DNA of 64,000 bases. Source: Eledone cirrhosa. Lineage: Eukaryota. The stretch is from NCBI GenBank assembly GCA_964016885.1, contig OZ024757.1, positions 11,346,001-11,410,000 on the forward strand. Reading direction: 5' to 3'. Below are positions 13,572 to 64,000 of the stretch, piece after piece (the first letter of the stretch is position 1; each line of letters starts with the position of its first letter). The position numbers were made by a program, and so were the translations under genes. A model generated the notes under the pieces. The model made no database searches, was not told where the DNA came from, and worked only from the letters and a program-made list of their open reading frames with translations.

Positions 13572-13576
13572 ACGTG

Positions 13577-13610
<34 letters not shown>

Positions 13611-13682
13611 GGTATGTATGTGTGTGTGTGTATATACATGAGTGTGTTTTATATGTGTGTAGATATGTGTATGTATATATAT

Positions 13683-13738
<56 letters not shown>

Positions 13739-13948
13739 TGTGAATGGATATATATATATGTATGTGTGTATGTTTATATATATATGTGTGTATATGTGTA
13801 TATGTCTATGTATTTATATGTGTATATGTATGTGTCTCTATATGTATGCATGTGTGTATGTGTATGTGTATTTATATGGTGTGTGTATGTATATGTATGT
13901 GTATGTGTGTGTTTATGTATATGTGTATGTATATGTATGTATATATAC

Positions 13949-13988
<40 letters not shown>

Positions 13989-14063
13989 GTATGTATATTG
14001 ATGTATATTTTATATTTTACTTGTTTGTATATATATATATGTATGTATGTGTGTGTGTATATA

Positions 14064-14094
<31 letters not shown>

Positions 14095-14100
14095 GTATTT
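12210..14100. repeat. Compound (TA)n/(TG)n/(TATG)n microsatellite field in right PLE 3' region
   Basis: Mirror image of 5150-6850 with different tract lengths and an extra local duplication around 13214-13470. Confidence 0.95.
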
Positions 14101-14688
14101 TCTTAATATATTTCTTTTTTCTTTTTCTTTTTATTTCTAAATTTATAGATACATTTATAAATAGGCAGCTTGCTGACACCGCTAAATACTGACCTCTCCC
14201 CCCCACCCACCTACTTTCTGTATCTGGATCTAAATATGTGTGGCAGTGTTTATGTGCGCGCATTAATGTCCATATGCTTATGATAATAATATATACACAT
14301 ATATGTGTGTGGGGGTGTGTGTGTGAATGTATGTTCGTGGTTGTGTGTATGTTTATGCGTATACGCGCGTGTGTGTGTGAATGTACGTATATGTGTGAGT
14401 ATATGAATGTGTGTATATGTTTATTTTTATATTTATATGCGTATACGTATTTTAGCTGTAGATTATAAACATACAGAGACATTAGCCTTGAATTTTTGTA
14501 TTTACATACATCTTTTCGGCATGCGTATGCATGTGAACATATATTTTTATGCATATCTGTGAACGAAGTTACTTACATATATACACACACCTAACTGTAT
14601 AAACTTTTTGTGTTTTCATTGGTCAATTTGAACTCTGTTCCCAAACAGACCTGTAATTTTGAATTGTTGTTATTATCAATAAATATAT

Positions 14689-14826
14689 TTCATTATTTCT
14701 GAAGACGGCATATATATGTGTTGGTATGTATATTTAATTTTGATAGTTTGTATAATTTTGTATAATTTTGTACATAGATCTGTTGAATATGCATGCCAAT
14801 CCTAGAAACGATCGTTAAATAATGAA
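14689..14826 (+). ncRNA. Hammerhead ribozyme, right copy, 16-bp deletion in stem II
   Basis: TTCATTATTT, CTGAAGA (14699-14705), GAAA (14805-14808), CGATCG, TT, AAATAATGAA. It lacks TCTAACACATATATAT, which is present in the left copy. Confidence 0.72.
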
Positions 14827-14889
14827 CTTTTTTTGTTTAATATAAGGAACTGTTTCATTGTTTTATTCATTATTTTTTTAATATTTTAT

Positions 14890-14923
14890 ATATATATATA
14901 TATCTTTAAATTTGGTTGTTATG

Positions 14924-14962
<39 letters not shown>

Positions 14963-15044
14963 CTTTATATTTGGTTGTTATGTCTCTCTCTCTCTCTATA
15001 TATATATATAGAGGAAAAAGCGGACGTAAAATGATGATGATGAT
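14890..15044 (+). repeat. Right flank: (TA)n, two ATCTTTAWATTTGGTTGTTATG(TC)n(TA)n units and a SINE tail remnant
   Basis: Units start at 14902 and 14961. GCGGACGTAAAATGATGATGATGAT at ~15020-15044 matches the SINE tails at 3600-3630 and 4083-4110. Confidence 0.8.
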
Positions 15045-15401
15045 ATATAGGTGATTATTGTGGAGTATTCAACTATTATTTTGTTAAGGTGAAAGAAACT
15101 CTATTCACAATAAAATCCTCTGCTCATAAAACAGACGAATAAGACTTCTATAGTTAAGGTTCTTGTTATTGAGGACAGTTCAGGTGACAAGAGAATTAAT
15201 ATACATAATTTCAAAAGAGGAAGTTAAATATATATATACATATATATATATATACAGACATAAAGTGTGTACGTATGAGAGAGAGAAATAGACGTGTGTG
15301 TGTGCAGAAATATCTGTGTACGTGTTGTAATAAGTGAAGATATTTCACTTTAGATACTAGAAAAGTTCACAATGTTTGTGCCGTGGTGGAAAACGAAGGA
15401 A

Positions 15402-15588
15402 ATGTAGATATCGTTAATAGATGCCATGTAGTCAATATACAAAGGCTCCATAAAAGACTGCAGAACTTGGCTTTCTTCTTCTACAAAGCTGTATTGTAGC
15501 ATTTAGTTGGTAGAAGTAATGAGACATATGACAGCCCAAGACTGATTTTCGACAAAGAAAATTCAAGTGCATATTATATATATGTATA
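15402..15588 (+). repeat. ~180-bp dispersed segment, copy 2
   Basis: Aligns in direct orientation with 3418-3600 and ends ~10 bp before the 69-bp array. Confidence 0.85.
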
Positions 15589-15598
15589 ATTCAATCAG

Positions 15599-18500
15599 AG
15601 AAGAAATAACATGAATCCAGAGGAGAGAGAAGTTTATCTACAGAATAGAAGAAGTCGAGATCATGGTAGAAGAAATAACATGAATCCAGAGGAGAGAAGC
15701 TTATCTACAGAATAGAAGTGGAGATCATGACAGAAGAAATAACATGAATCCAGAGGATAGAGAAGTTTATCTACAGAATAGAAGTGGAGATCATGACAGA
15801 AGAAATAACTTGAATCCAGAGGAGAGAGAAGTTTATCTGCAGAATCGCAGTGGAGATCATGGTAGAAGAAATAACATGAATCCAGAGGAGAGAGAAGTTT
15901 ATCTACAAAATCGAAGTGGAGATCATGGTAGAAGAAATAACATGAATCCAGAGGTGAGAGAAGTTTATCTACAGAATAGAATTGGAGATCATGGTAGAAG
16001 AAATAACATCAATCCAGAGGTGAGAGAAGCTTATCTACAGAATAGAAGATGTGGAGATCATGGTAGAAGAAATAACATGAATCCAGATGTGAGAGAAGCT
16101 TATCTACAGAATAGAAGAAGTGGAGATCATGGTAGAAGAAATAACATGAATCCAGAGGTGAGAGAATTTTATCTACAGAATAGAAGAAGTGGAGATCATG
16201 ACAGAAGAATAACATGAATCCAGAGGAGAGAGTAGCTTATCTACAGAATAGAAGTGGAGATCTTTACAGAAGAAATAACATGAATCCAGAGGATAGAGAA
16301 GTTTATCTACAGAATAGAAGAAGTGGAGATCATGACAAGAAATAACATAAATCCAGAGGAGAAAGAAGATTCTCTACAGAATAGAAGAAGTGAAGATCAC
16401 GACAGAAGAAATAACATGAATCCATAGGAGAGAGAAGTTTATCTACAGAATAGAAGAAGTGGAGATCATGACAGAAGAATAACATGAATCCAGAGGAGAG
16501 AGAAGTTTATCTACAGAATAGAAGAAGTGGAGATCATGGTAGAAGAAATAACATGAATCCAGAGGTGAGTGAAGTTTATCTATAGAATAGAAGTGGAGAT
16601 CATGGTAGAAGAAATAACATGAATCCAGCGGTGAGAGAAGTTTATCTATAGAATAGAAGTGGTGTAGATCATGGTAGAAGAAATAACATGAAACCAGAGG
16701 AGAGAGAAGCTTATCTACAGAATAGAAGAAGTGGAGATCATGACTGAAGAAATAACATGAATCCAGAGGAGAGAGAAGTTTATCTACAGAATAGAAGTGG
16801 AGATCATGGTAGAAGAAATAACATGAATCCAGAGGTGAGAGAAGATTATCTACAGAATAGAAGTGGAGATCATGGTAGAAGAAATAACATGAATCCAGAG
16901 GTGAGAGAAGATTATCTGCAGAATAGAGGAAGTGGAGATCATGGTAGAAGAAATAACATGAATCCAGGGGTGAGAGAAGTTTATCTACAGAATAGAAGAA
17001 GTGGAGATCATGACAGAAGAAATAACTTGAATCTAGAGGTGAGAGAATTTTATCTACAGAATACAAGAAGCGGAGGTCAGACAGAAGAAATAACAGGAAT
17101 CCACAGGAGAGAGAAGTTTATCTACAGAATAGAAGTGGAGATCATGGTAGAAGAAATAACATGAATCCAGAGGTGAGAGAAGATTATCTACAGAATAGAA
17201 GTGGAGATCATGGTAGAAGAAATAACATGAATCCAGAGGTGAGAGAAGATTATCTACAGAATAGAGGAAGTGGAGATCATGGTAGAAGAAATAACATGAG
17301 TCCAGAGGAGAGAGAAGTTTATCTACAGAATAGAAGAAGTGAAGATCAAGGTAGAAGAAATAACATGAATCCAGATGTGAGAGAAGCTTATCTACAGAAT
17401 AGAAGTGGAGATCATGACTGAAGAAATAACATGAATCTAGAGGTGAGAGAAGTTTAACTACAGAATAGAAGAAGGTGAGATCATGACCGAAGAAATAACA
17501 TAAATCCAGAGGAGAGAGAAGTTTATCTACAGAATAGAAGAAGTGGAGGTCATGACAGAAGAAATAACATGAATCCAGAGGAGAGACAAGCTTATCTACA
17601 GAATAGAAGAAGTGGAGATCATGACAAAAGAAATAACATGAATCCAGAGGAGAGAGAAGCTTATCTACAGAATAGAAGTGGAGATCATGGTAGAAGAAAT
17701 AACATGAATCCAGAGGTGAAAGGATTTTATCTACAGAATAGAAGAAGTGGAGATCATGGTAGAAGAAATAACATGAATCCAGAGGAGAGAGAATTTTATC
17801 TACCGAATAGAAAAAGTGGAGATCAAGGTAGAAGAAATAACATGAATCCAGAGGAGAGAGAATTTTATCTACAGAATAGAAGAAGTGGAGATCATGGTAG
17901 AAGAAATAACATGAATCCAGAGGTGAGAGAAGTTTATCTACAGAATAGAAGAAGTGGAGATCATGACAGAAGAAATAACTTGAATCTAGAGTTGAGAGAA
18001 GTTTATCTACAGAATAGAAGAAGCGGAGGTCAGACAGAAGAAATAACAGGAATCCACAGGAGAGAGAAGTTTATCTACAGAGTAGAAGTGGAGATCATGG
18101 TAGAAGAAATAACATGAATCCAGAGGTGAGAGAAGATTATCTACAGAATAGAGGAAGTGGATATCATGGTAGAAGAAATAACATGAGTCCAGAGGAGAGA
18201 GAAGTTTATCTACAGAATAGAAGAAGTGAAGATCATGGTAGAAGAAATAACATGAATCCAGAGGTGAGAGAAGTTTAACTACAGAATAGAAGAAGTGGAG
18301 ATCATGACAGAAGAAATAGCATAAATCCAGAGGAGAGAGAAGTTTATCTACAGAATAGAAGAAGTGGAGGTCATGACAGAAGAAACAACAGGAATCCAGA
18401 GGTGAGAGAAGTGTATCTACAGAATAGAAGAAGTGGAGATCATGACAGAAGAAATAACATGAATCTAGAGGTGAGAGAAGTTTATCTACAGAATAGAAGA

Positions 18501-21500
18501 AGTGGAGATCATGACAGAAGAAATAACATGAATCCAGAGGAGAGAGAAGCTTATCTACAGAATAGAAGTGGAGATCATGGTAGAAGAAATAACATGAATC
18601 CAGAGGTGAAAGGATTTTATCTACAGAATAGAAGAAGTGGAGATCATGGTAGAAGAAATAACATGAATCCAGAGGAGAGAGAATTTTATCTACCGAATAG
18701 AAAATGTGGAGATCATGGTAGAAGAAATAACATGAATCCAGAGGAGAGAGAAGTTTATCTACAGAATAGAAGAAGTGGAGATCATGACAGAAGAAATAAC
18801 TTGAATCTAGAGTTGAGAGAAGTTTATCTACAGAATAGAAGAAGCGGAGGTCAGACAGAAGAAATAACAGGAATCCACAGGAGAGAGAAGTTTATCTACA
18901 GAGTAGAAGTGGAGATCATGGTAGAAGAAATAACATGAATCCAGAGGTGAGAGAAGATTATCTACAGAATAGAGGAAGTGGAGATCATGGTAGAAGAAAT
19001 AACATAAGTCCAGAGGAGAGAGAAGTTTATCTACAGAATAGAAGAAGTGAAGATCATGGTAGAAGAAATAACATGAATCCAGAGGTGAGAGAAGTTTAAC
19101 TACAGAATAGAAGAAGTGGAGATCATGACAGAAGAAACAACAGGAATCCAGAGGTGAGAGAAGTGTATCTACAGAATAGAAGAAGTGGAGATCATGACAG
19201 AAGAAATAACATGAATTCAGAGGTGAGAGATTTTTATCTACAGAATAGAAGGAGTGGAGATCATGACAGAAGAAATAACAGGAATCCACAGGAGAGAGAA
19301 GATTATCTACAGAATAGAAGTGGAGATCATGGTAGAAGAAATAACATGAATCCGGAGGTGAGAGAAGATTATCTACAGAATAGAAGTGGAGATCATGGTA
19401 GAAGAAATAACATGAATCCAGAGGTGAGAGAAGATTATCTACAGAATACAGGAAGTGGAGATCATGGTAGAAGAAATAACATGAGTCCAGAGGAGAGAGA
19501 AGATTATCTACAGAATAGAAGAAGTGGAGATCATGGTAGAAGAAATAACATGAATCCAGATGTGAGAGAAGCTTATCTACAGAATAGAAGTGGAGATCAT
19601 GACTGAAGAAATAACATGAATCCAGAGGTGAGAGAAGTTTAACTACAGAATAGAAGAAGTGGAGTTCATGACAGAAGAAATAACATAAATCCAGAGGAGA
19701 GAGAAGTTTATCTACAGAATAGAAGAAGTGGAGGTCATGACAGAAGAAACAACAGGAATCCAGAGGTGAGAGAAGTGTATCTACAGAATAGAAGAAGTGG
19801 AGATCATGACAGAAGAAATAACATGAATGCAGAGGTGAGAGAAGTTTATCTACAGAATAGAAGAAATGGAGATCATGACAGAAGAAATAACATGAATCCA
19901 GAGGTGAGAGAAGATTATCTACAGAATAGAAGTGGAGATCATGGTAGAAGAAATAACATGAATCCAGAGGTGAGAGAAGATTATCAACAGAATAGAGGAA
20001 GTGGAGATCATGACAGAAGAAATAACATGAATCCAGAGGTGAGAGAAGTTTAACTACAGAATAGAAGAAGTGGAGATCATGGTAGAAGAAATAACATGAA
20101 TCCAGAGGTGAGAGAAGATTATCTACAGAATAGAGGAAGTGGAGATCATGGTAGAAGAAATAACATGAGTCCAGAGGAGAGAGAAGATTATCTACAGAAT
20201 AGAAGAAGTGGAGATCATGGTAGAAGAAATAACATGAGTCCAGAGGAGAGAGAAGTTTATCTACAGAATAGAAGAAGTGAAGATCAAGGTAGAAGAAATA
20301 ACATGAATCCAGATGTGAGAGAAGCTTATCTACAGAATAGAAGTGGAGATCATGACTGAAGAAATAACATGAATCCAGAGGTGAGAGAATTTTAACTACA
20401 GAATAGAAGAAGGTGAGATCATGACCGAAGAAATAACATAAATCCAGAGGAGAGAGAAGTTTATCTACAGAATAGAAGAAGTGGAGGTCATGACAGAAGA
20501 AATAACATGATTCCAGAGAAGAGACAAGCTTATCTACAGAATAGAAGAAGTGGAGATCATGACAAAAGAAATAACATGAATCCAGAGGAGAGAGAAGCTT
20601 ATCTACAGAATAGAAGTGGAGATCATGGTAGAAGAAATAACATGAATCCAGAGGTGAAAGGATTTTATCTACAGAATAGAAGAAGTGGAGATCATGGTAG
20701 AAGAAATAACATGAATCCAGAGGAGAGAGAATTTTATCTACCGAATAGAAAAAGTGGAGATCATGGTAGAAGAAATAACATGAATCCAGAGGAGAGAGAA
20801 TTTTATCTACAGAATAGAAGAAGTGGAGATCATGGTAGAAGAAATAACATGAATCCAGAGGTGAGAGAAGTTTATCTACAGAATAGAAGAAGTGGAGATC
20901 ATGACAGAAGAAATAACTTGAATCTAGAGTTGAGAGAAGTTTATCTACAGAATAGAAGAAGCGGAGGTCAGACAGAAGAAATAACAGGAATCCACAGGAG
21001 AGAGAAGTTTATCTACAGAGTAGAAGTGGAGATCATGGTAGAAGAATTAACATGAATCCAGAGGTGAGAGAAGATTATCTACAGAATAGAGGAAGTGGAT
21101 ATCATGGTAGAAGAAATAACATGAGTCCAGAGGAGAGAGAAGTTTATCTACAGAATAGAAGAAGTGAAGATCATGGTAGAAGAAATAACATGAATCCAGA
21201 GGTGAGAGAAGTTTAACTACAGAATAGAAGAAGTGGAGATCATGACAGAAGAAATAGCATAAATCCAGAGGAGAGAGAAGTTTATCTACAGAATAGAAGA
21301 AGTGGAGGTCATGACAGAAGAAACAACAGGAATCCAGAGGTGAGAGAAGTGTATCTACAGAATAGAAGAAGTGGAGATCATGACAGAAGAAATAACATGA
21401 ATCTAGAGGTGAGAGAAGTTTATCTACAGAATAGAAGAAGTGGAGATCATGACAGAAGAAATAACATGAATCCAGAGGAGAGAGAAGCTTATCTACAGAA

Positions 21501-24500
21501 TAGAAGTGGAGATCATGGTAGAAGAAATAACATGAATCCAGAGGTGAAAGGATTTTATCTACAGAATAGAAGAAGTGGAGATCATGGTAGAAGAAATAAC
21601 ATGAATCCAGAGGAGAGAGAATTTTATCTACCGAATAGAAAATGTGGAGATCATGGTAGAAGAAATAACATGAATCCAGAGGAGAGAGAAGTTTATCTAC
21701 AGAATAGAAGAAGTGGAGATCATGACAGAAGAAATAACTTGAATCTAGAGTTGAGAGAAGTTTATCTACAGAATAGAAGAAGCGGAGGTCAGACAGAAGA
21801 AATAACAGGAATCCACAGGAGAGAGAAGTTTATCTACAGAGTAGAAGTGGAGATCATGGTAGAAGAAATAACATGAATCCAGAGGTGAGAGAAGATTATC
21901 TACAGAATAGAGGAAGTGGAGATCATGGTAGAAGAAATAACATAAGTCCAGAGGAGAGAGAAGTTTATCTACAGAATAGAAGAAGTGAAGATCATGGTAG
22001 AAGAAATAACATGAATCCAGAGGTGAGAGAAGTTTAACTACAGAATAGAAGAAGTGGAGATCATGACAGAAGAAACAACAGGAATCCAGAGGTGAGAGAA
22101 GTGTATCTACAGAATAGAAGAAGTGGAGATCATGACAGAAGAAATAACATGAATCCAGAGGTGAGAGATTTTTATCTACAGAATAGAAGGAGTGGAGATC
22201 ATGACAGAAGAAATAACAGGAATCCACAGGAGAGAGAAGATTATCTACAGAATAGAAGTGGAGATCATGGTAGAAGAAATAACATGAATCCAGAGGTGAG
22301 AGAAGATTATCTACAGAATACAGGAAGTGGAGATCATGGTAGAAGAAATAACATGTGTCCAGAGGAGAGAGAAGATTATCTACAGAATAGAAGAAGTGGA
22401 GATCATGGTAGAAGAAATAACATGAGTCCAGAGGAGAGAGACGTTTATCTACAGAATAGAAGAAGTGAAGATCAAGGTAGAAGAAATAACATGAATCCAG
22501 ATGTGAGAGAAGCTTATCTACAGAATAGAAGTGGAGATCATGACTGAAGAAATAACATGAATCCAGAGGTGAGAGAAGTTTAACTACAGAATAGAAGAAG
22601 TGGAGTTCATGACAGAAGAAATAACATAAATCCAGAGGAGAGAGAAGTTTATCTACAGAATAGAAGAAGTGGAGGTCATGACAGAAGAAACAACAGGAAT
22701 CCAGAGGTGAGAGAAGTGTATCTACAGAATAGAAGAAGTGGAGATCATGACAGAAGAAATAACATGAATGCAGAGGTGAGAGAAGTTTATCCACAGAATA
22801 GAAGAAATGGAGATCATGACAGAAGAAATAACATGAATCCAGAGGTGAGAGAAGATTATCTACAGAATAGAAGTGGAGATCATGGTAGAAGAAATAACAT
22901 GAATCCAGAGGTGAGAGAAGATTATCAACAGAATAGAGGAAGTGGAGATCATGACAGAAGAAATAACATGAATCCAGAGGTGAGAGAAGTTTAACTACAG
23001 AATAGAAGAAGTGGAGATCATGACAGAAGAAATAACATAAATCCAGAGGAGAGAGAAGTTTATCTACAGAATAGAAGAAGTGGAGGTCATGACAGAAGAA
23101 ACAACAGGAATCCAGAGGTGAGAGAAGTGTATCTACAGAATAGAAGAAGTGGAGATCATGACAGAAGAAATAACATGAATCTAGAGGTGAGAGAAGTTTA
23201 TCTACAGAATAGAAGAAGTGGAGATCATGGTAGAAGAAATAACATGAATCCAGAGGTGAGAGAAGTTTATCTACAGAATAGAAGAAGTGGAGATCATGAC
23301 AGAAGAAATAACATGAATCCAGAGGAGAGAGAAGTTTATCTACAGAATAGAAGAAGTGGAGATCATGACAGAAGAAATAACATGAATCCAGAGGTTAGAG
23401 AAGTTTATCTGCAGAATAGAAGAAGTGGAGATCATGACAGAAGAAATAACACGAATCCAGAGGAGAGAGAAGCTTATCTACACAATAGAAGTGGAGATCA
23501 GACAGAAGAAATAACATGAATCCAGAGGAGAGAGAAGTTTATCTACAGAATAGAAGAAGTGGAGATCATGACAGAAGAAATAACTTGAATCTAGAGGTGA
23601 GAGAAGTTTATCTACAGAATAGAAGAGGCGGAGATCAGACAGAAGAAATAACAGGAATCCAGAGGAGAGAAGCTTATCTACAGAATAGAAGTGTAGATCA
23701 TGACAGAAGAAATAACATGAGTCCAGAGGAGAGAGAAGTTTATCTACAGAATAGAAGAAGTGGAGATCATAACAGAAGAAATAACATGAATCCAGAGGAG
23801 AGACAAGCTTATCTACAGAATAGAAGAAGTGGAGATCATGACAAAAGAAATAACATGAATCCAGAGGAGAGAGAAGCTTATCTACAGAATAGAAGTGGAG
23901 ATCATGGTAGAAGAAATAACATGAATCCAGAGGAGAGAGAATTTTATCTACCGAATAGAAAATGTGGAGATCATGGTAGAAGAAATAACATGAATCCAGA
24001 GGAGAGAGAATTTTATCTACAGAATAGAAGAAGTGGAGATCATGGTAGAAGAAATAACATGAATCCAGAGGAGAGAGAAGTTTATCTACAGAATAGAAGA
24101 AGTGAAGATCATGGTAGAAGAAATAACATGAATCCAGAGGTGAGAGAAGTTTAACTACAGAATAGAAGAAGTGGAGATCATGACAGAAGAAATAGCATAA
24201 ATCCAGAGGAGAGAGAAGTTTATCTACAGAATAGAAGAAGTGGAGGTCATGACAGAAGAAACAACAGGAATCCAGAGGTGAGAGAAGTGTATCTACAGAA
24301 TAGAAGAAGTGGAGATCATGACAGAAGAAATAACATGAATCTAGAGGTGAGAGAAGTTTATCTACAGAATAGAAGAAGTGGAGATCATGACAGAAGAAAT
24401 AACATGAATCCAGAGGAGAGAGAAGCTTATCTACAGAATAGAAGAAGTGAAGATCATGGTAGAAGAAATAACATGAATCCAGAGGTGAGAGAAGTTTAAC

Positions 24501-27500
24501 TACAGAATAGAAGAAGTGGAGATCATGACAGAAGAAATAGCATAAATCCAGAGGAGAGAGAAGTTTATCTACAGAATAGAAGAAGTGGAGGTCATGACAG
24601 AAGAAACAACAGGAATCCAGAGGTGAGAGAAGTGTATCTACAGAATAGAAGAAGTGGAGATCATGACAGAAGAAATAACATGAATCTAGAGGTGAGAGAA
24701 GTTTATCTACAGAATAGAAGAAGTGGAGATCATGACAGAAGAAATAACATGAATCCAGAGGAGAGAGAAGCTTATCTACAGAATAGAAGTGGAGATCATG
24801 GTAGAAGAAATAACATGAATCCAGAGGTGAAAGGATTTTATCTACAGAATAGAAGAAGTGGAGATCATGGTAGAAGAAATAACATGAATCCAGAGGAGAG
24901 AGAATTTTATCTACCGAATAGAAAATGTGGAGATCATGGTAGAAGAAATAACATGAATCCAGAGGAGAGAGAAGTTTATCTACAGAATAGAAGAAGTGGA
25001 GATCATGACAGAAGAAATAACTTGAATCTAGAGTTGAGAGAAGTTTATCTACAGAATAGAAGAAGCGGAGGTCAGACAGAAGAAATAACAGGAATCCACA
25101 GGAGAGAGAAGTTTATCTACAGAGTAGAAGTGGAGATCATGGTAGAAGAAATAACATGAATCCAGAGGTGAGAGAAGATTATCTACAGAATAGAGGAAGT
25201 GGAGATCATGGTAGAAGAAATAACATAAGTCCAGAGGAGAGAGAAGTTTATCTACAGAATAGAAGAAGTGAAGATCATGGTAGAAGAAATAACATGAATC
25301 CAGAGGTGAGAGAAGTTTAACTACAGAATAGAAGAAGTGGAGATCATGACAGAAGAAACAACAGGAATCCAGAGGTGAGAGAAGTGTATCTACAGAATAG
25401 AAGAAGTGGAGATCATGACAGAAGAAATAACATGAATCCAGAGGTGAGAGATTTTTATCTACAGAATAGAAGGAGTGGAGATCATGACAGAAGAAATAAC
25501 AGGAATCCACAGGAGAGAGAAGATCATCTACAGAATAGAAGTGGAGATCATGGTAGAAGAAATAACATGAATCCAGAGGTGAGAGAAGATTATCTACAGA
25601 ATACAGGAAGTGGAGATCATGGTAGAAGAAATAACATGAGTCCAGAGGAGAGAGAAGATTATCTACAGAATAGAAGAAGTGGAGATCATGGTAGAAGAAA
25701 TAACATGAGTCCAGAGGAGAGAGACGTTTATCTACAGAATAGAAGAAGTGAAGATCAAGGTAGAAGAAATAACATGAATCCAGATGTGAGAGAAGCTTAT
25801 CTACAGAATAGAAGTGGAGATCATGACTGAAGAAATAACATGAATCCAGAGGTGAGAGAAGTTTAACTACAGAATAGAAGAAGTGGAGTTCATGACAGAA
25901 GAAATAACATAAATCCAGAGGAGAGAGAAGTTTATCTACAGAATAGAAGAAGTGGAGGTCATGACAGAAGAAACAACAGGAATCCAGAGGTGAGAGAAGT
26001 ATATCTACAGAATAGAAGAAGTGGAGATCATGACAGAAGAAATAACATGAATGCAGAGGTGAGAGAAGTTTATCCACAGAATAGAAGAAATGGAGATCAT
26101 GACAGAAGAAATAACATGAATCCAGAGGTGAGAGAAGATTATCTACAGAATAGAAGTGGAGATCATGGTAGAAGAAATAACATGAATCCAGAGGTGAGAG
26201 AAGATTATCAACAGAATAGAGGAAGTGGAGATCATGACAGAAGAAATAACATGAATCCAGAGGTGAGAGAAGTTTAACTACAGAATAGAAGAAGTGGAGA
26301 TCATGACAGAAGAAATAACATAAATCCAGAGGAGAGAGAAGTTTATCTACAGAATAGAAGAAGTGGAGGTCATGACAGAAGAAACAACAGGAATCCAGAG
26401 GTGAGAGAAGTGTATCTACAGAATAGAAGAAGTGGAGATCATGACAGAAGAAATAACATGAATCTAGAGGTGAGAGAAGTTTATCTACAGAATAGAAGAA
26501 GTGGAGATCATGGTAGAAGAAATAACATGAATCCAGAGGTGAGAGAAGTTTATCTACAGAATAGAAGAAGTGGAGATCATGACAGAAGAAATAACATGAA
26601 TCCAGAGGAGAGAGAAGTTTATCTACAGAATAGAAGAAGTGGAGATCATGACAGAAGAAATAACATGAATCCAGAGGTTAGAGAAGTTTATCTGCAGAAT
26701 AGAAGAAGTGAAGATCATGACAGAAGAAATAACACGAATCCAGAGGAGAGAGAAGCTTATCTACACAATAGAAGTGGAGATCAGACAGAAGAAATAACAT
26801 GAATCCAGAGGAGAGAGAAGTTTATCTACAGAATAGAAGAAGTGGAGATCATGACAGAAGAAATAACTTGAATCTAGAGGTGAGAGAAGTTTATCTACAG
26901 AATAGAAGAGGCGGAGATCAGACAGAAGAAATAACAGGAATCCAGAGGAGAGAAGCTTATCTACAGAATAGAAGTGTAGATCATGACAGAAGAAATAACA
27001 TGAGTCCAGAGGAGAGAGAAGTTTATCTACAGAATAGAAGAAGTGGAGATCATAACAGAAGAAATAACATGAATCCAGAGGAGAGACAAGCTTATCTACA
27101 GAATAGAAGAAGTGGAGATCATGACAAAAGAAATAACATGAATCCAGAGGAGAGAGAAGCTTATCTACAGAATAGAAGAAGTGGAGATCATGACAGAAGA
27201 AACAACAGGAATCCAGAGGTGAGAGAAGTGTATCTACAGAATAGAAGAAGTGGAGATCATGACAGAAGAAATAACTTGAATCTAGAGTTGAGAGAAGTTT
27301 ATCTACAGAATAGAAGAAGCGGAGGTCAGACAGAAGAAATAACAGGAATCCACAGGAGAGAGAAGTTTATCTACAGAGTAGAAGTGGAGATCATGGTAGA
27401 AGAAATAACATGAATCCAGAGGTGAGAGAAGATTATCTACAGAATAGAGGAAGTGGAGATCATGGTAGAAGAAATAACATGAGTCCAGAGGAGAGAGAAG

Positions 27501-51500: not shown

Positions 51501-54500
51501 TAACATGAATCCAGAGGTGAGAGAAGTTTATCTACAGAATAGAAGAAGTGGAGGTCATGACAGAAGAAATAACATGAATCCAGAGGAGAGACAAGCTTAT
51601 CTACAGAATAGAAGAAGTGGAGATCATGACAAAAGAAATAACATGAATCCAGAGGAGAGAGAAGCTTATCTACAGAATAGAAGTGGAGATCATGGTAGAA
51701 GAAATAACATGAATCCAGAGGTGAAAGGATTTTATCTACAGAATAGAAGAAGTGGAGATCATGGTAGAAGAAATAACATGAATCCAGAGGTGAGATAAGT
51801 TTATCTACAGAATAGAAGAAGTGGAGATCATGATAGAAGAAATAACATGAATCCAGAGGTGAGAGAAGTTTATCTGCAGAATAGAAGAAGTGGAGATCAT
51901 GACAGAAGAAATAACACGAATCCAGAGGAGAGAGAAGCTTATCTACACAATAGAAGTGGAGATCAGACAGAAGAAATAACATGAATCCAGAGGAGAGAGA
52001 AGTTTATCTACAGAATAGAAGAAGTGGAGATCATGACAGAAGAAATAACTTGAATCTAGAGGTGAGAGAAGTTTATCTACAGAATAGAAGCAGCGGAGAT
52101 CAGACAGAAGAAATAACAGGAATCCAGAGGAGAGAAGCTTATCTACAGAATAGAAGTGTAGATCATGACAGAAGAAATAACATGAGTCCAGAGGAGAGAG
52201 AAGTTTATCTACAGAATAGAAGAAGTGGAGATCATGACAGAAGAAATAACATGAATCCAGAGGAGAGAGAAGTTTATCTACAGAATAGAAGAAGTGAAGA
52301 TCATGGTAGAAGAAATAACATGAATCCAGATGTGAGAGAAGCTTATCTACAGAATAGAAGTGGAGATCATGACTGAAGAAATAACATGAATCCAGAGGTG
52401 AGAGAAGTTTAACTACAGAATAGAAGAAGTGGAGATCATGACCGAAGAAATAACATAAATCCAGAGGAGAGAGAAGTTTATCTACAGAATAGAAGAAGTG
52501 GAGATCATGACAGAAGAAATAACATGAATCCAGAGGTGAGAGAAGTTTATCTACAGAATAGAAGAAGTGGAGATCATGACAGAAGAAATAACATGAATCC
52601 AGAGGTGAGAGAAGTTTATCTGCAGAATAGAAGAAGTGGAGATCATGACAGAAGAAATAACATGAATCCAGAGGTGAGAGAAGTTTATCTACAGAATAGA
52701 AGAAGTGGAGATCATGACAGAAGAAATAACATGAATCCAGAGGAGAGAGGAGTTTATCTACAGAATAGAAGAAGTGGAGATCATGACAGAAGAAATAACA
52801 TGAATCCAGAGGAGAGAGAAGTTTATCTACAGAATAGAAGAAGTGGAGATCATGACAGAAGAAATAACATGAATCCAGAGGAGAGAGGAGTTTATCTACA
52901 GAATAGAAGAAGTGGAGATCATGACAGAAGAAATAACATGAATCCAGAGGTGAGAGAAGTTTATCTACAGAATAGAAGAAGTGGAGGTCATGACAGAAGA
53001 AACAACAGGAATCCAGAGGTGACAGAAGTTTAACTACAGAATAGAAGAAGTGGAGATCATGACCGAAGAAATAACATAAATCCAGAGGTGAGAGAAGTTT
53101 ATCTACAGAATAGAAGAAGTGGAGATCATTACAGAAGAAATAACATGAATCCAGAGGTGAGAGAAGTTTATCTACAGAATAGAAGAAGTGGAGGTCATGA
53201 CAGAAGAAACAACAGGAATCCAGAGGTGACAGAAGTTTATCTACAGAATAGAAGAAGTGGAGATCATGACAGAAGAAATAACATGAATCCAGAGGTGAGA
53301 GAAGTTTATCTACAGAATAGAAGAAGTGGAGATCATGACAGAAGAAATAACATGAATCCAGAGGTGAGAGAAGTTTATCTGCAGAATAGAAGAAGTGGAG
53401 ATCATGACAGAAGAAATAACAGGAATCCAGAGGTGACAGAAGTTTATCTACAGAATAGAAGAAGTGGAGATCATGACAGAAGAAATAACATGAATCCAGA
53501 GGAGAGAGGAGTTTATCTACAGAATAGAAGAAGTGGAGATCATGACAGAAGAAATAACATGAATCCAGAGGTGAGAGAAGTTTATCTGCAGAATAGAAGA
53601 AGTGGAGATCATGACAGAAGAAATAACATGAATCCAGAGGAGAGACAAGCTTATCTACAGAATAGAAGAAGTGGAGATCATGACAAAAGAAATAACATGA
53701 ATCCAGAGGAGGGAGAAGCTTATCTACAGAATAGAAGTGGAGATCATGGTAGAAGAAATAACATGAATCCAGAGGTGAAAGGATTTTATCTACAGAATAG
53801 AAGAAGTGGAGATCATGGTAGAAGAAATAACATGAATCCAGAGGAGAGAGAATTTTATCTACCGAATAGAAAAAGTGGAGATCATGGTAGAAGAAATAAC
53901 ATGAATCCAGAGGAGAGAGAATTTTATCTACAGAATAGAAGAAGTGGAGATCATGACAGAAGAAATAACATGAATCCAGAGGTGAGAGAAGTTTATCTAC
54001 AGAATAGAAGAAGTGGAGATCATGGTAGAAGAAATAACATGAATCAGGAGGTGAGAGAAGTTTATCTACAGAATAGAAGAAGTGGAGATCATGACAGAAG
54101 AAATAACATCAATCCAGAGGTTAGAGAAGTTTATCTGCAGAATAGAAGAAGTGGAGATCATGACAGAAGAAATAACACGAATCCAGAGGAGAGAGAAGCT
54201 TATCTACAGAATAGAAGTGGAGATCAGACAGAAGAAATAACATGAATCCAGAGGAGAGAGAAGTTTATCTACAGAATAGAAGAAGTGGAGATCATAACAG
54301 AAGAAATAACTTGAATCTAGAGGTGAGAGAATTTTATCTACAGAATAGAAGAAGCGGAGATCAGACAGAAGAAATAACAGGAATCCAGAGGAGAGAAGCT
54401 TATCTACAGAATAGAAGTGTAGATCATGACAGAAGAAGTAACATGAGTGCAGAGGAGAGAGAAGTTTATCTACAGAATAGAAGAAGTGGAGATCATAACA

Positions 54501-57500
54501 GAAGAAATAACATGAATCCAGAGGAGAGAGAAGTTTATCTACAGAATAGAAGAAGTGAAGATCATGGTAGAAGAAATAACATGAATCCAGATGTGAGAGA
54601 AGCTTATCTACAGAATAGAAGTGGAGATCATGACTGAAGAAATAACATGAATCCAGAGGTGAGAGAAGTTTAACTACAGAATGGAAGAAGTGGAGATCAT
54701 GACCGAAGAAATAACATAAATCCAGAGGAGAGAGAAGTTTATCTACAGAATAGAAGAAGTGGAGATCATGATAGAAGAAATAACATGAATCCAGAGGTGA
54801 GAGAATTTTATCTACAGAATAGAAGAAGCGGAGATCAGACAGAAGAAATAACTTGAATCCAGAGGAGAGAAGCTTATCTACAGAATAGAAGTGTAGATCA
54901 TGACAGAAGAAATAACATGAGTCCAGAGGAGAGAGAAGTTTATCTACAGAATAGAAGAAGTGGAGATCATGATAGAAGAAATAACATGAATCCAGAGGTG
55001 AGAGAAGTTTATCTACAGAATAGAAGAAGTGGAGGTCATGACAGAAGAAATAACATGAATCCAGAGGAGAGACAAGCTTATCTACAGAATAGAAGAAGTG
55101 GAGATCATGACAAAAGAAATAACATGAATCCAGATGTGAGAGAAGCTTATCTACAGAATAGAAGTGGAGATCATGGTAGAAGAAATAACATGAATCCAGA
55201 GGTGAAAGGATTTTATCTACAGAATAGAAGAAGTGGAGATCATGGTAGAAGAAATAACATGAATCCAGAGGAGAGAGAATTTTATCTACCGAATAGAAAA
55301 AGTGGAGATCATGGTAGAAGAAATAACATGAATCCAGAGGAGAGAGAATTTTATCTACAGAATAGAAGAAGTGGAGATCATGGTAGAAGAAATAACATGA
55401 ATCCAGAGGTGAGAGAAGTTTATCTACAGAATAGAAGAAGTGAAGATCATGGTAGAAGAAATAACATGAATCCAGATGTGAGAGAAGCTTATCTACAGAA
55501 TAGAAGTGGAGATCATGACTGAAGAAATAACATGAATCCAGAGGTGAGAGAAGTTTAACTACAGAATAGAAGAAGTGGAGATCATGACAGAAGAAATAGC
55601 ATAAATCCAGAGGAGAGAGAAGTTTATCTACAGAATAGAAGAAGTGGAGGTCATGACAGAAGAAACAACAGGAATCCAGAGGTGAGAGAAGTGTATCTAC
55701 AGAATAGAAGAAGTGGAGATCATGACAGAAGAAATAACATGAATCCAGAGGTGAGAGAAGTTTATCTACAGAATAGAAGGAGTGGAGATCATGACAGAAG
55801 AAATAACATGAATCCAGAGGTGAGAGAAGTTTATCTACAGAATAGAAGAAGTGGAGATCATGGTAGAAGAAATAACATGAATCCAGAGGTGAGATAAGTT
55901 TATCTACAGAATAGAAGAAGTGGAGATCATGATAGAAGAAATAACATGAATCCAGAGGTGAGAGAAGTTTATCTGCAGAATAGAAGAAGTGGAGATCATG
56001 ACAGAAGAAATAACACGAATCCAGAGGAGAGAGAAGCTTATCTACACAATAGAAGTGGAGATCAGACAGAAGAAATAAGATGAATCCAGAGGAGAGAGAA
56101 GTTTATCTACAGAATAGAAGAAGTGGAGATCATGACAGAAGAAATAACTTGAATCTAGAGGTGAGAGAAGTTTATCTACAGAATAGAAGCAGCGGAGATC
56201 AGACAGAAGAAATAACAGGAATCCAGAGGAGAGAAGCTTATCTACAGAATAGAAGTGTAGATCATGACAGAAGAAATAACATGAGTCCAGAGGAGAGAGA
56301 AGTTTATCTACAGAATAGAAGAAGTGGAGATCATGACAGAAGAAATAACATGAATCCAGAGGAGAGAGAAGTTTATCTACAGAATAGAAGAAGTGAAGAT
56401 CATGGTAGAAGAAATAACATGAATCCAGATGTGAGAGAAGCTTATCTACAGAATAGAAGTGGAGATCATGACTGAAGAAATAACATGAATCCAGAGGTGA
56501 GAGAAGTTTAACTACAGAATAGAAGAAGTGGAGATCATGACCGAAGAAATAACATAAATCCAGAGGAGAGAGAAGTTTATCTACAGAATAGAAGAAGTGG
56601 AGATCATGACAGAAGAAATAACATGAATCCAGAGGTGAGAGAAGTTTATCTACAGAATAGAAGAAGTGGAGGTCATGACAGAAGAAACAACAGGAATCCA
56701 GAGGTGACAGAAGTTTATCTACAGAATAGAAGAAGTGGAGATCATGACAGAAGAAATAACATGAATCCAGAGGTGAGAGAAGTTTATCTACAGAATAGAA
56801 GAAGTGGAGATCATGACAGAAGAAATAACATGAATCCAGAGGTGAGAGAAGTTTATCTGCAGAATAGAAGAAGTGGAGATCATGACAGAAGAAATAACAT
56901 GAATCCAGATGTGAGAGAAGCTTATCTACAGAATAGAAGAAGTGGAGATCATGACTGAAGAAATAACATGAATCCAGAGGTGAGAGAAGTTTAACTACAG
57001 AATGGAAGAAGTGGAGATCATGACCGAAGAAATAACATAAATCCAGAGGAGAGAGAAGTTTATCTACAGAATAGAAGAAGTGGAGATCATGATAGAAGAA
57101 ATAACATGAATCCAGAGGTGAGAGAAGTTTATCTACAGAATAGAAGAAGTGGAGGTCATGACAGAAGAAATAACATGAATCCAGAGGAGAGACAAGCTTA
57201 TCTACAGAATAGAAGAAGTGGAGATCATGACAAAAGAAATAACATGAATCCAGAGGAGAGAGAAGCTTATCTACAGAATAGAAGTGGAGATCATGGTAGA
57301 AGAAATAACATGAATCCAGAGGTGAAAGGATTTTATCTACAGAATAGAAGAAGTGGAGATCATGGTAGAAGAAATAACATGAATCCAGAGGAGAGAGAAT
57401 TTTATCTACCGAATAGAAAAAGTGGAGATCATGGTAGAAGAAATAACATGAATCCAGAGGAGAGAGAATTTTATCTACAGAATAGAAGAAGTGGAGATCA

Positions 57501-60500
57501 TGACAGAAGAAATAACATGAATCCAGAGGTGAGAGAAGTTTATCTACAGAATAGAAGAAGTGGAGATCATGGTAGAAGAAATAACATGAATCAGGAGGTG
57601 AGAGAAGTTTATCTACAGAATAGAAGAAGTGGAGATCATGACAGAAGAAATAACATCAATCCAGAGGTTAGAGAAGTTTATCTGCAGAATAGAAGAAGTG
57701 GAGATCATGACAGAAGAAATAACACGAATCCAGAGGAGAGAGAAGCTTATCTACAGAATAGAAGTGGAGATCAGACAGAAGAAATAACATGAATCCAGAG
57801 GAGAGAGAAGTTTATCTACAGAATAGAAGAAGTGGGGATCATGACAGAAGAAATAACTTGAATCTAGAGGTGAGAGAATTTTATCTACAGAATAGAAGAA
57901 GCGGAGATCAGACAGAAGAAATAACTTGAATCCAGAGGAGAGAAGCTTATCTACAGAATAGAAGTGTAGATCATGACAGAAGAAATAACATGAGTCCAGA
58001 GAAGAGAGAAGTTTATCTACAGAATAGAAGAAGTGGAGATCATAACAGAAGAAATAACATGAATCCAGAGGAGAGAGAAGTTTATCTACAGAATAGAAGA
58101 AGTGAAGATCATGGTAGAAGAAATAACATGAATCCAGATGTGAGAGAAGCTTATCTACAGAATAGAAATGGAGATCATGACTGAAGAAATAACATGAATC
58201 CAGAGGTGAGAGAAGTTTAACTACAGAATGGAAGAAGTGGAGATCATGACCGAAGAAATAACATAAATCCAGAGGAGAGAGAAGTTTATCTACAGAATAG
58301 AAGAAGTGGAGATCATGATAGAAGAAATAACATGAATCCAGAGGTGAGAGAAGTTTATCTACAGAATAGAAGAAGTGGAGGTCATGACAGAAGAAATAAC
58401 ATGAATCCAGAGGAGAGACAAGCTTATCTACAGAATAGAAGAAGTGGAGATCATGACAAAAGAAATAACATGAATCCAGATGTGAGAGAAGCTTATCTAC
58501 AGAATAGAAGTGGAGATCATGGTAGAAGAAATAACATGAATCCAGAGGTGAAAGGATTTTATCTACAGAATAGAAGAAGTGGAGATCATGGTAGAAGAAA
58601 TAACATGAATCCAGAGGAGAGAGAATTTTATCTACCGAATAGAAAAAGTGGAGATCATGGTAGAAGAAATAACATGAATCCAGAGGAGAGAGAATTTTAT
58701 CTACAGAATAGAAGAAGTGGAGATCATGGTAGAAGAAATAACATGAATCCAGAGGTGAGAGAAGTTTATCTACAGAATAGAAGAAGTGAAGATCATGGTA
58801 GAAGAAATAACATGAATCCAGATGTGAGAGAAGCTTATCTACAGAATAGAAGTGGAGATCATGACTGAAGAAATAACATGAATCCAGAGGTGAGAGAAGT
58901 TTAACTACAGAATAGAAGAAGTGGAGATCATGACAGAAGAAATAGCATAAATCCAGAGGAGAGAGAAGTTTATCTACAGAATAGAAGAAGTGGAGGTCAT
59001 GACAGAAGAAACAACAGGAATCCAGAGGTGAGAGAAGTGTATCTACAGAATAGAAGAAGTGGAGATCATGACAGAAGAAATAACATGAATCCAGAGGTGA
59101 GAGAAGTTTATCTACAGAATAGAAGGAGTGGAGATCATGACAGAAGAAATAACATGAATCCAGAGGTGAGAGAAGTTTATCTACAGAATAGAAGAAGTGG
59201 AGATCATGGTAGAAGAAATAACATGAATCCAGAGGTGAGATAAGTTTATCTACAGAATAGAAGAAGTGGAGATCATGATAGAAGAAATAACATGAATCCA
59301 GAGGTGAGAGAAGTTTATCTGCAGAATAGAAGAAGTGGAGATCATGACAGAAGAAATAACACGAATCCAGAGGAGAGAGAAGCTTATCTACACAATAGAA
59401 GTGGAGATCAGACAGAAGAAATAAGATGAATCCAGAGGAGAGAGAAGTTTATCTACAGAATAGAAGAAGTGGAGATCATGACAGAAGAAATAACTTGAAT
59501 CTAGAGGTGAGAGAAGTTTATCTACAGAATAGAAGCAGCGGAGATCAGACAGAAGAAATAACAGGAATCCAGAGGAGAGAAGCTTATCTACAGAATAGAA
59601 GTGTAGATCATGACAGAAGAAATAACATGAGTCCAGAGGAGAGAGAAGTTTATCTACAGAATAGAAGAAGTGGAGATCATGACAGAAGAAATAACATGAA
59701 TCCAGAGGAGAGAGAAGTTTATCTACAGAATAGAAGAAGTGAAGATCATGGTAGAAGAAATAACATGAATCCAGATGTGAGAGAAGCTTATCTACAGAAT
59801 AGAAGTGGAGATCATGACTGAAGAAATAACATGAATCCAGAGGTGAGAGAAGTTTAACTACAGAATAGAAGAAGTGGAGATCATGACCGAAGAAATAACA
59901 TAAATCCAGAGGAGAGAGAAGTTTATCTACAGAATAGAAGAAGTGGAGATCATGACAGAAGAAATAACATGAATCCAGAGGTGAGAGAAGTTTATCTACA
60001 GAATAGAAGAAGTGGAGATCATGACAGAAGAAATAACATGAATCCAGAGGTGAGAGAAGTTTATCTGCAGAATAGAAGAAGTGGAGATCATGACAGAAGA
60101 AATAACATGAATCCAGAGGTGAGAGAAGTTTATCTACAGAATAGAAGAAGTGGAGATCATGACAGAAGAAATAACATGAATCCAGAGGAGAGAGGAGTTT
60201 ATCTACAGAAAAGAAGAAGTGGAGATCATGACAGAAGAAATAACATGAATCCAGAGGAGAGAGAAGTTTATCTACAGAATAGAAGAAGTGGAGATCATGA
60301 CAGAAGAAATAACATGAATCCAGAGGAGAGAGGAGTTTATCTACAGAATAGAAGAAGTGGAGATCATGACAGAAGAAATAACATGAATCCAGAGGTGAGA
60401 GAAGTTTATCTACAGAATAGAAGAAGTGGAGGTCATGACAGAAGAAACAACAGGAATCCAGAGGTGACAGAAGTTTAACTACAGAATAGAAGAAGTGGAG

Positions 60501-63500
60501 ATCATGACCGAAGAAATAACATAAATCCAGAGGTGAGAGAAGTTTATCTACAGAATAGAAGAAGTGGAGATCATTACAGAAGAAATAACATGAATCCAGA
60601 GGTGAGAGAAGTTTATCTACAGAATAGAAGAAGTGGAGGTCATGACAGAAGAAACAACAGGAATCCAGAGGTGACAGAAGTTTATCTACAGAATAGAAGA
60701 AGTGGAGATCATGACAGAAGAAATAACATGAATCCAGAGGTGAGAGAAGTTTATCTACAGAATAGAAGAAGTGGAGATCATGACAGAAGAAATAACATGA
60801 ATCCAGAGGTGAGAGAAGTTTATCTGCAGAATAGAAGAAGTGGAGATCATGACAGAAGAAATAACAGGAATCCAGAGGTGACAGAAGTTTATCTACAGAA
60901 TAGAAGAAGTGGAGATCATGACAGAAGAAATAACATGAATCCAGAGGAGAGAGGAGTTTATCTACAGAATAGAAGAAGTGGAGATCATGACAGAAGAAAT
61001 AACATGAATCCAGAGGTGAGAGAAGTTTATCTGCAGAATAGAAGAAGTGGAGATCATGACAGAAGAAATAACATGAATCCAGAGGAGAGACAAGCTTATC
61101 TACAGAATAGAAGAAGTGGAGATCATGACAAAAGAAATAACATGAATCCAGAGGAGAGAGAAGCTTATCTACAGAATAGAAGTGGAGATCATGGTAGAAG
61201 AAATAACATGAATCCAGAGGTGAAAGGATTTTATCTACAGAATAGAAGAAGTGGAGATCATGGTAGAAGAAATAACATGAATCCAGAGGAGAGAGAATTT
61301 CATCTACCGAATAGAAAAAGTGGAGATCATGGTAGAAGAAATAACATGAATCCAGAGGAGAGAGAATTTTATCTACAGAATAGAAGAAGTGGAGATCATG
61401 ACAGAAGAAATAACATGAATCCAGAGGTGAGAGAAGTTTATCTACAGAATAGAAGAAGTGGAGATCATGACAGAAGAAATAACATGAATCCAGAGGTGAG
61501 AGAAGTTTATCTACAGAATAGAAGAAGTGGAGATCATGGTAGAAGAAATAACATGAATCAGGAGGTGAGAGAAGTTTATCTACAGAATAGAAGAAGTGGA
61601 GATCATGACAGAAGAAATAACATCAATCCAGAGGTTAGAGAAGTTTATCTGCAGAATAGAAGAAGTGGAGATCATGACAGAAGAAATAACACGAATCCAG
61701 AGGAGAGAGAAGCTTATCTACAGAATAGAAGTGGAGATCAGACAGAAGAAATAACATGAATCCAGAGGAGAGAGAAGTTTATCTACAGAATAGAAGAAGT
61801 GGAGATGATGACAGAAGAAATAACTTGAATCTAGAGGTGAGAGAATTTTATCTACAGAATAGAAGAAGCGGAGATCAGACAGAAGAAATAACAGGAATCC
61901 AGAGGAGAGAAGCTTATCTACAGAATAGAAGTGTAGATCATGACAGAAGAAGTAACATGAGTGCAGAGGAGAGAGAAGTTTATCTACAGAATAGAAGAAG
62001 TGGAGATCATAACAGAAGAAATAACATGAATCCAGAGGAGAGAGAAGTTTATCTACAGAATAGAAGAAGTGAAGATCATGGTAGAAGAAATAACATGAAT
62101 CCAGATGTGAGAGAAGCTTATCTACAGAATAGAAGTGGAGATCATGACTGAAGAAATAACATGAATCCAGAGGTGAGAGAAGTTTAACTACAGAATGGAA
62201 GAAGTGGAGATCATGACCGAAGAAATAACATAAATCCAGAGGAGAGAGAAGTTTATCTACAGAATAGAAGAAGTGGAGATCATGATAGAAGAAATAACAT
62301 GAATCCAGAGGTGAGAGAAGTTTATCTACAGAATAGAAGAAGTGGAGGTCATGACAGAAGAAATAACATGAATCCAGAGGAGAGACAAGCTTATCTACAG
62401 AATAGAAGAAGTGGAGATCATGACAAAAGAAATAACATGAATCCAGAGGAGAGAGAAGCTTATCTACAGAATAGAAGTGGAGATCATGGTAGAAGAAATA
62501 ACATGAATCCAGAGGTGAAAGGATTTTATCTACAGAATAGAAGAAGTGGAGATCATGGTAGAAGAAATAACATGAATCCAGAGGAGAGAGAATTTTATCT
62601 ACCGAATAGAAAAAGTGGAGATCATGGTAGAAGAAATAACATGAATCCAGAGGAGAGAGAATTTTATCTACAGAATAGAAGAAGTGGAGATCATGGTAGA
62701 AGAAATAACATGAATCCAGAGGTGAGAGAAGTTTATCTACAGAATAGAAGAAGTGAAGATCATGGTAGAAGAAATAACATGAATCCAGATGTGAGAGAAG
62801 CTTATCTACAGAATAGAAGTGGAGATCATGACTGAAGAAATAACATGAATCCAGAGATGAGAGAAGTTTAACTACAGAATAGAAGAAGTGGAGATCATGA
62901 CAGAAGAAATAGCATAAATCCAGAGGAGAGAGAAGTTTATCTACAGAATAGAAGAAGTGGAGGTCATGACAGAAGAAACAACAGGAATCCAGAGGTGAGA
63001 GAAGTGTATCTACAGAATAGAAGAAGTGGAGATCATGACAGAAGAAATAACATGAATCCAGAGGTGAGAGAAGTTTATCTACAGAATAGAAGGAGTGGAG
63101 ATCATGACAGAAGAAATAACATGAATCCAGAGGTGAGAGAAGTTTATCTACAGAATAGAAGAAGTGGAGATCATGGTAGAAGAAATAACATGAATCCAGA
63201 GGTGAGATAAGTTTATCTACAGAATAGAAGAAGTGGAGATCATGATAGAAGAAATAACATGAATCCAGAGGTGAGAGAAGTTTATCTGCAGAATAGAAGA
63301 AGTGGAGATCATGACAGAAGAAATAACACGAATCCAGAGGAGAGAGAAACTTATCTACACAATAGAAGTGGAGATCAGACAGAAGAAATAACATGAATCC
63401 AGAGGTGAGAGAAGTTTATCTACAGAATAGAAGAAGTGGAGATCATGACAGAAGAAATAACTTGAATCTAGAGGTGAGAGAAATTTATCTACAGAATAGA

Positions 63501-64000
63501 AGCAGCGGAGATCAGACAGAAGAAATAACAGGAATCCAGAGGAGAGAAGCTTATCTACAGAATAGAAGTGTAGATCATGACAGAAGAAATAACATGAGTC
63601 CAGAGGAGAGAGAAGTTTATCTACAGAATAGAAGAAGTGGAGATCATGACAGAAGAAATAACATGAATCCAGAGGAGAGAGAAGTTTATCTACAGAATAG
63701 AAGAAGTGAAGATCATGGTAGAAGAAATAACATGAATCCAGATGTGAGAGAAGCTTATCTACAGAATAGAAGTGGAGATCATGACTGAAGAAATAACATG
63801 AATCCAGAGGTGAGAGAAGTTTAACTACAGAATAGAAGAAGTGGAGATCATGACCGAAGAAATAACATAAATCCAGAGGAGAGAGAAGTTTATCTACAGA
63901 ATAGAAGAAGTGGAGATCATGACAGAAGAAATAACATGAATCCAGAGGTGAGAGAAGTTTATCTACAGAATAGAAGAAGTGGAGGTCATGACAGAAGAAA
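15599..64000. repeat. 69/66-bp tandem satellite with higher-order repeats, ~700 units, runs off the right edge
   Basis: Consensus AGAAGAAATAACATGAATCCAGAGGTGAGAGAAGTTTATCTACAGAATAGAAGAAGTGGAGATCATGAC (69 bp; 49 of 69 purines on +). The 66-bp variant lacks one AGA. One open 23-codon frame exists on each strand, broken by recurrent stop and frameshift variants. Confidence 0.98.

Follow-up and report, generated by a model that had tools for sequence, protein, structure and literature searches.

An N-terminal repeat of a Helitron transposase gene as the probable source of giant satellite arrays in Eledone cirrhosa

The stretch of DNA analyzed here (the window: 64,000 nucleotides, C18:11346001-11410000, within an assembly of 3.0 Gb) carries a tandem array that runs off its right end, and raises the question of where a satellite unit that translates into a protein repeat came from and whether the array still codes for a protein. 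The initial annotation had read the 69-bp unit on the plus strand as a 23-residue repeat related to the DNA-binding STPR repeats, and had proposed that a few-copy coding repeat from a gene or transposon was amplified to some 700 or more copies. The features of concern are the following.

15599..64000, and on to L011:1519, plus strand: tandem array of the 69-bp Helitron coding unit (from repeat analysis and flank comparison)
60479..61759, plus strand: longest open run of the window in the ancestral frame (426 aa from stop to stop, 17 clean units)
59388..61622, minus strand: longest open run of the window on the opposite strand (744 aa; without a Pfam family)
15010..15598, no strand: left flank, unrelated DNA adjoining the first unit of the array; Helitron 5' part absent

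Repeat analysis of the window recovers the array with a period of 69 bp, 709 copies and 90% matches, and it overruns the window end to stop about 1.5 kb beyond, with 732 units in total; the proposed scale of amplification is thereby borne out, and the unit translates as the annotation had it. The annotation had also suggested inspecting the far end, where the array is followed by two terminal units of the parent type (L011:1520-1657), distinct from the satellite unit, and then by the 3' end of a Helitron, namely a hairpin remnant (decayed, as read by eye) and CTAG, followed by T, at L011:1754, 1.75 kb beyond the window. In sister copies, the 5' part of the Helitron measures about 550 bp; it was found neither at this copy nor in the 65.8 kb upstream that were compared, the search covering window positions 1-15800, L020 and L090-L093; hence, the boundary of the C18 copy is established on one side only. 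Elsewhere in the window, positions 4348-14890 form a large inverted duplication with arms of about 5 kb, 96-100% complementary in their unique parts and 574 bp apart. Within it lies a split frame (8857-9834 and 7968-8900 on the minus strand, 10183-11130 on the plus strand) whose motifs resemble those of reverse transcriptase and GIY-YIG; this frame gave no significant match in Pfam or PDB and, from its motifs, we take it to be Penelope-like. An unrelated 53-bp tandem repeat (1-2463, 46.7 copies) runs off the left end of the window.

Two features of the array might be read as signs of coding, and we rejected both. The open run of 408 aa reported at 60533-61759 is real, but from stop to stop the frame starts at 60479 and spans 426 aa, and the longer runs on the minus strand had been missed; the 744-aa run there is a by-product of low divergence. 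Among shuffled 69-bp units (n = 20,000), 91% had at least one of the six frames open and 56% had two, and an open frame in such a unit is no more than chance. Similarly, of the 708 units delimited in the window, 531 measure 69 bp and 93 measure 66 bp. The 3-bp loss is thus the commonest single length change, as the annotation had claimed, but the frameshifting units combined are nearly as numerous (84: 25 of 64 bp, 21 of 65 bp, one of 67 bp and 37 of 68 bp), and the loss is located in an AGA-AGA-AG run, so that it is no evidence of selection on the frame. As the minus frame is open too and shuffled units are mostly open, neither the open frame nor the 3-bp indel proves anything alone; the coding origin of the unit rests on its parent element. 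In the STPR profile search that the annotation had recommended for multi-unit peptides, none of four array peptides matched the Pfam STPR family at E<=10. Their sole Pfam match above cut-off was BCA_ABC_TP_C, a bacterial transporter motif (44.9 bits over seven 9-residue stretches), and a PDB sequence search with an array peptide returned engineered protein A repeats (E 1e-6); we regard both as repeat artefacts. An ESM Atlas search (best score 0.77) gave no lead.

The parent is a dispersed Helitron family, whose Rep-helicase gene starts with some seven diverged repeats of 23 codons, the array unit among them. The flanks of this array and of a second large one on C28 recur genome-wide (at least 50 and at least 43 matches, with the 40 best candidates scored per flank), being about 81-95% identical in the best matches to dispersed copies. 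A 5' TC start is seen in 21 of the 29 dispersed copies inspected, as well as in the C28 array copy, and a 3' CTAG in 17 of the 29, six ends being not located and six having one change; T directly follows the element at 22 of 23 located ends. Dispersed copies with both ends located span 0.45-7.1 kb. The number of units per dispersed copy ranges from 2 to 16, with local expansions in some, and these copies provide the low-copy homologue for which the annotation had advised a search. In the long copies, which are decayed, a Met is followed in frame by the repeats, a Cys/His region, Helitron_like_N and PIF1. Pfam recognizes Helitron_like_N (E 9.7e-54) and PIF1 (E 6.4e-36) in L096 and Pif1_2B in L112, and a profile of family members, two relatives included, matches the bat Helraiser transposase (PDB 7lcc, E 9e-40). 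No intact transposase was found among the ten long loci translated, which were best-scoring candidates of the genome searches; all ten are broken. Judged by its termini, as these are described in the accessible text of PMC13404089, the family is an HLE1 Helitron. Hence, amplification of a coding repeat that a transposon carried in few copies is upheld, with the N-terminal repeat of the Rep-helicase gene as the source.

Relatives of the element occur in an amphipod (P0035) and in other assemblies (P0002, P0027, P0033), and this occurrence suggests horizontal transfer, possibly among marine invertebrates. Related Helitron pieces also lie within the gene models P0015, P0021 and P0035 (amphipod Trinorchestia longiramus), at 76-84% identity over short stretches. 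In this genome, L101 and L102 (C9:17.35 and 17.39 Mb) are a duplicated locus in which a truncated 5' part of the family with a few satellite-type units precedes a decayed gene that belongs to another Helitron. In the short copy L063, a 5' TC lies right behind a CTAG-like end, which suggests head-to-tail copies as from rolling-circle copying.

Comparison with the parent unit classes identifies the unit that grew: the satellite consensus has a mean identity of 90% to class 1 (a set that includes small expansions in L045, L101 and L102) and 88% to class 2, against 76-83% to classes 3-6 and 45% to the lead-in unit. The second array (C28:136040947-136201554; L022, L074-L089, L024) comprises 2,375 units over 160 kb, as against 50 kb for the C18 array, and lies about 0.3 Mb from the contig end. 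Its copy retains both Helitron ends, with a 3' end as in C18 and a TC-start 5' part, and has a decayed gene start upstream. A genome-wide search with an exact unit-junction pattern gave 2,241 matches on the forward strand and 7 on the reverse, and every forward match falls in one of the two arrays (278 and 1,963). With the expanded part of L045 as query, no long array of another unit class emerged among the best 150 of 206 matches, which comprised small copies on C13, C3 and C2 and the C28 array. The two arrays have 143 and 157 exact monomer types, of which only four are common; none of the 2,375 C28 units has a variant that occurs in 53-59% of C18 units; and each array retains 3' pieces missing from the other. 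Hence, the arrays likely grew separately, in two deletion derivatives. Their divergence differs (2.4% in C28 versus 4.4% in C18), and both contain block duplications with periods of 3-18 kb, which fit unequal exchange.

As a protein module, the parent repeat invites comparison with STPR, a repeat of strictly 23 residues made of a 2-residue linker and a 21-residue helix, with conserved Glu1, Thr/Ser2 and Arg9 (as described in the accessible part of PMC4856987). Against the Pfam family PF21107, with its cut-off of 27 bits, one of five parent pieces matched, at 12.2 bits, whereas positive controls from the same genome scored 60.2 and 99.3 bits, one of them matching silkworm FMBP-1 (PDB 5d23); the relatives P0002-P0004, P0027, P0028 and P0033-P0035 had no match to it. 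Pfam, PDB-sequence and Foldseek searches returned no FMBP-1 match for the family repeat, nor did Foldseek with the parent-repeat model give any match at E<=10. In the 65 distinct stop-free units of the window, Met1 occurs in 54, Asn2 in 54, Ser2 in nine and Tyr9 in 63. As for the residues with which STPR, a binder of the major groove of AT-rich DNA, contacts phosphates (Arg6, Arg9, Leu10, Tyr16 and Arg20), Arg6 is present in 62, Leu10 in 61 and Arg20 in 63, while Arg9 and Tyr16 are not kept. The annotation had rightly observed that Glu1 and Arg9 give way to Met and Tyr; they do so throughout the units and, the scores lying below the Pfam cut-off, the repeat is not an STPR member.

Other features bring the two repeats together. 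The strict 23-residue period holds in the 69-bp majority of window units and in most parent units. A profile comparison with 41 STPR-type units finds the best register at 0, with P 0.003 for 66 family units, picked by a pattern that fixes four columns, and P 0.022 for the 65 satellite units (5,000 column shuffles); a common helix-capping start could lie behind part of this similarity. The parent repeat is predicted as 21-22-residue helices joined by 2-residue linkers (helices 48-68, 71-91 and 94-115; pLDDT 78.6, pTM 0.32). Pfam STPR repeats lie ahead of the Rep domain in three of 25 relatives (P0014, P0022, P0025), and among 238 STPR matches in this genome at E<=1 several fall within other Helitron-like frames. 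It is fair to call the repeat STPR-like on account of its period, its register, its position ahead of the Rep domain and its predicted helix-linker pattern, and by inference it would work like STPR. Distant homology with STPR is rather probable, the rival being convergence on a helix-capping motif. The relation that the annotation had drawn therefore persists as a likeness whose register exceeds column-shuffled controls, but not as family membership. Separately, an open frame at L029 (C8:40.28 Mb) has canonical STPR repeats that match FMBP-1 (PDB 5d23, E 3.6e-12) and is likely a host STPR gene.

Annotated BTB proteins (P0003, P0004, P0028, P0029) from Octopus vulgaris, O. sinensis and O. bimaculoides also start with the Helitron N-terminal repeat module, at 69-70% identity. 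Between O. sinensis and O. bimaculoides, the module is 92% identical over 118 residues, the BTB domain 93% and the C-terminal part 85%, and in this genome the module stretch is open, by a crude test, in only five of 23 Helitron copies. In the mantis shrimp Oratosquilla oratoria, HMG-box proteins from two annotated loci start with the module as well (P0034, P0036, P0037), likely a second, independent capture; their HMG part presumably resembles BAF57/SMARCE1. Both fusions are known from annotated gene models, and module-less isoforms exist in each case. The module being as conserved as BTB in Octopus points to repeated domestication: as far as sequence comparison goes, the module of the Octopus BTB proteins is likely a domesticated exon, and a repeated domestication, in two phyla, of a Helitron module missed by Pfam appears reasonably probable. 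In this genome, BTB-gene exons are about 45-65% identical to the Octopus proteins, which suggests that the host, likely an octopod, falls outside the O. vulgaris group. For the likely BTB orthologue, on C4, a comparison of 120 kb with the Helitron gave no DNA match; instead of the module, another open Arg/Glu-rich repeat frame lies 4 kb upstream. A BTB gene cluster on C4 (about 297.95-297.96 Mb) has STPR-like upstream frames (L133:8849-9346 and 4827-5051). N-terminal repeat modules may be swapped within the BTB family.

Whether the arrays themselves are still used as protein was judged from their broken units and variant spectra. In C18, 182 of 732 units are broken (84 by a frameshift, 98 by a stop), and in C28, 63 of 2,375. 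We compared distinct single-base variant types with the expectation from the mutation spectrum, a test of limited power that ignores the order of duplications. Silent, replacement and stop types numbered 13, 71 and 5 in C18 (16.7, 66.9 and 5.4 expected; 646 of 730 units used) and 22, 68 and 4 in C28 (19.3, 70.1 and 4.6 expected; 2,326 of 2,371 units), so that the variant spectrum reveals no purifying selection on coding in either array. Taken with the long-open minus strand, this indicates that the arrays are now likely neutral, non-coding satellite DNA, and the annotation's statement that the unit encodes a protein repeat is true of the ancestor, but not of an array without selection on coding.

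We posit that, very probably, one 23-codon repeat from the beginning of a Helitron Rep-helicase gene, within a deleted copy, grew to about 730 units that are now likely a neutral, non-coding satellite. Growth from a few units would have proceeded by slippage and unequal exchange after the death of the gene, rolling-circle copying may have helped, and the two arrays would have grown separately; the parent repeat would be a helical DNA-binding arm distantly related to STPR.

It is improbable that the arrays, above all that on C28, are instead transcribed from the Helitron 5' region and translated from the first-unit ATG into a giant helical repeat protein binding DNA or chromatin, with the repeat separately adopted by the Octopus BTB and mantis shrimp HMG-box proteins. 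The C28 array does have 8,200 open codons from its first unit, comprising 364 clean units downstream of the retained 5' part, with all of its 63 broken units after unit 364; its silent changes are slightly above expectation (P 0.16), and host genes of other species appear to use the Helitron repeat as protein. However, the natural start of this frame is cut by three in-frame stops; in its first 364 units, 8 of the 36 silent changes that could occur are present and 39 of the 159 replacement changes, a neutral ratio; its minus strand is likewise open for 4,628 codons; and in the C18 array, breaks recur after every few units and the 5' part is missing. Moreover, the amplified unit has Ser-Gly-Asp at positions that are helical in later parent units, and its single-sequence model, made without an alignment, displays a broken helix at low confidence (pLDDT 58).

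A role for the arrays as non-coding functional satellite, for instance as a seed of heterochromatin or centromere or as the origin of small RNAs directed at the Helitron family, is quite improbable: large homogeneous arrays with higher-order blocks would suit it, and Helitron-borne repeats elsewhere have been tied to centromeres or piRNAs (PMC13404089, in its accessible text; a title cited in PMC9659126), but the 3.0-Gb assembly has just two such loci, of 50 and 160 kb, on two contigs. The reverse direction, whereby a satellite or host exon existed first and was then acquired by a Helitron, might appeal to the capture of host DNA by Helitrons (PMC11417382, in part) and to the Octopus BTB genes carrying the repeat, but it is already largely refuted and barely credible, for the repeat is in frame with the transposase, also in Helitrons of other organisms (P0002, P0027, P0033; P0035 from the amphipod), the satellite matches the first two of about seven diverged unit classes of the parent, and no such repeat is present in the likely BTB orthologue of this genome.

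Transposons are known to have given rise to satellites, chiefly through their non-coding parts; in the case favored here, growth from a Helitron coding repeat, a transposase supplied the monomer as a finished protein repeat. One genome preserves the series from parent gene through copies of 2-16 units to arrays of 732 and 2,375 units from one unit class, which renders the birth of the satellite datable and makes it testable which repeats expand. For annotation, the arrays are also a warning that an open frame of kilobases in a satellite can be a relic, inherited and under no selection. The adoption by host proteins may matter more, in that annotated host proteins of two phyla start with a Helitron repeat. 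In titles and opening abstracts of the open-access literature, we found neither a satellite from a Helitron transposase repeat nor the BTB and HMG fusions; Table S11 of HELIANO, Repbase and Dfam could bear on novelty.

Among known systems, the closest to the parent are the HLE1 elements with STPR of the HELIANO survey (PMC11417382), whose accessible text lists STPRs as a domain of HLE1 elements, in separate ORFs, and contains neither "tandem" nor "satellite". The likeness extends to the TC and CTAG termini, the 3' hairpin, the Rep and PIF1 gene and the N-terminal 23-residue repeat, whereas here the repeat is of a Met1/Asn2/Tyr9 type, below the Pfam cut-off and inside the transposase ORF. With the STPR of Bombyx FMBP-1 (PF21107, PDB 5d23; PMC4856987, in part) it has in common the 23-residue period, Arg6, Leu10, Arg20, basic content, register and predicted helix and linker, but Glu1, Thr/Ser2, Arg9 and Tyr16 are replaced. 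The fusions with host proteins recall SETMAR, the BTB-integrase and the F-box-HTH proteins (PMC12062965), in which an N-terminal transposase module is likewise joined to a host protein, as in the Octopus BTB and Oratosquilla HMG-box cases; our module differs as a Helitron repeat without a Pfam family and of putative host function, and neither "octopus" nor "STPR" occurs in the accessible text of that paper.

As a satellite, the array resembles those of Helentrons, such as oyster Cg_HINE (PMC7492417) and Drosophila DINE-TR1 (PMC9659126), where an internal repeat of a rolling-circle element likewise became an array between its ends. The accessible text of these papers describes central repeats of non-autonomous elements, with at most 29.3 monomers for Cg_HINE in the oyster assembly, and a report on Xenopus describes Helitron tandem arrays of 2-7 repeats (PMC12001565, in part). 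Monomers from coding parts of transposons are represented by PROsat (LINE-1 ORF2), HinfI (CR1 ORF2), the gag-related satellite of rye and CficCl-61-40 of Chenopodium (CACTA Tnp2), although non-coding parts prevail as sources (PMC9659126). As far as the accessible text of that review goes, none of these derives from a Helitron ORF or arose by in-frame amplification of a protein repeat that already existed, in contrast to the codon-length module of an HLE1 transposase that here reaches 732 and 2,375 copies.
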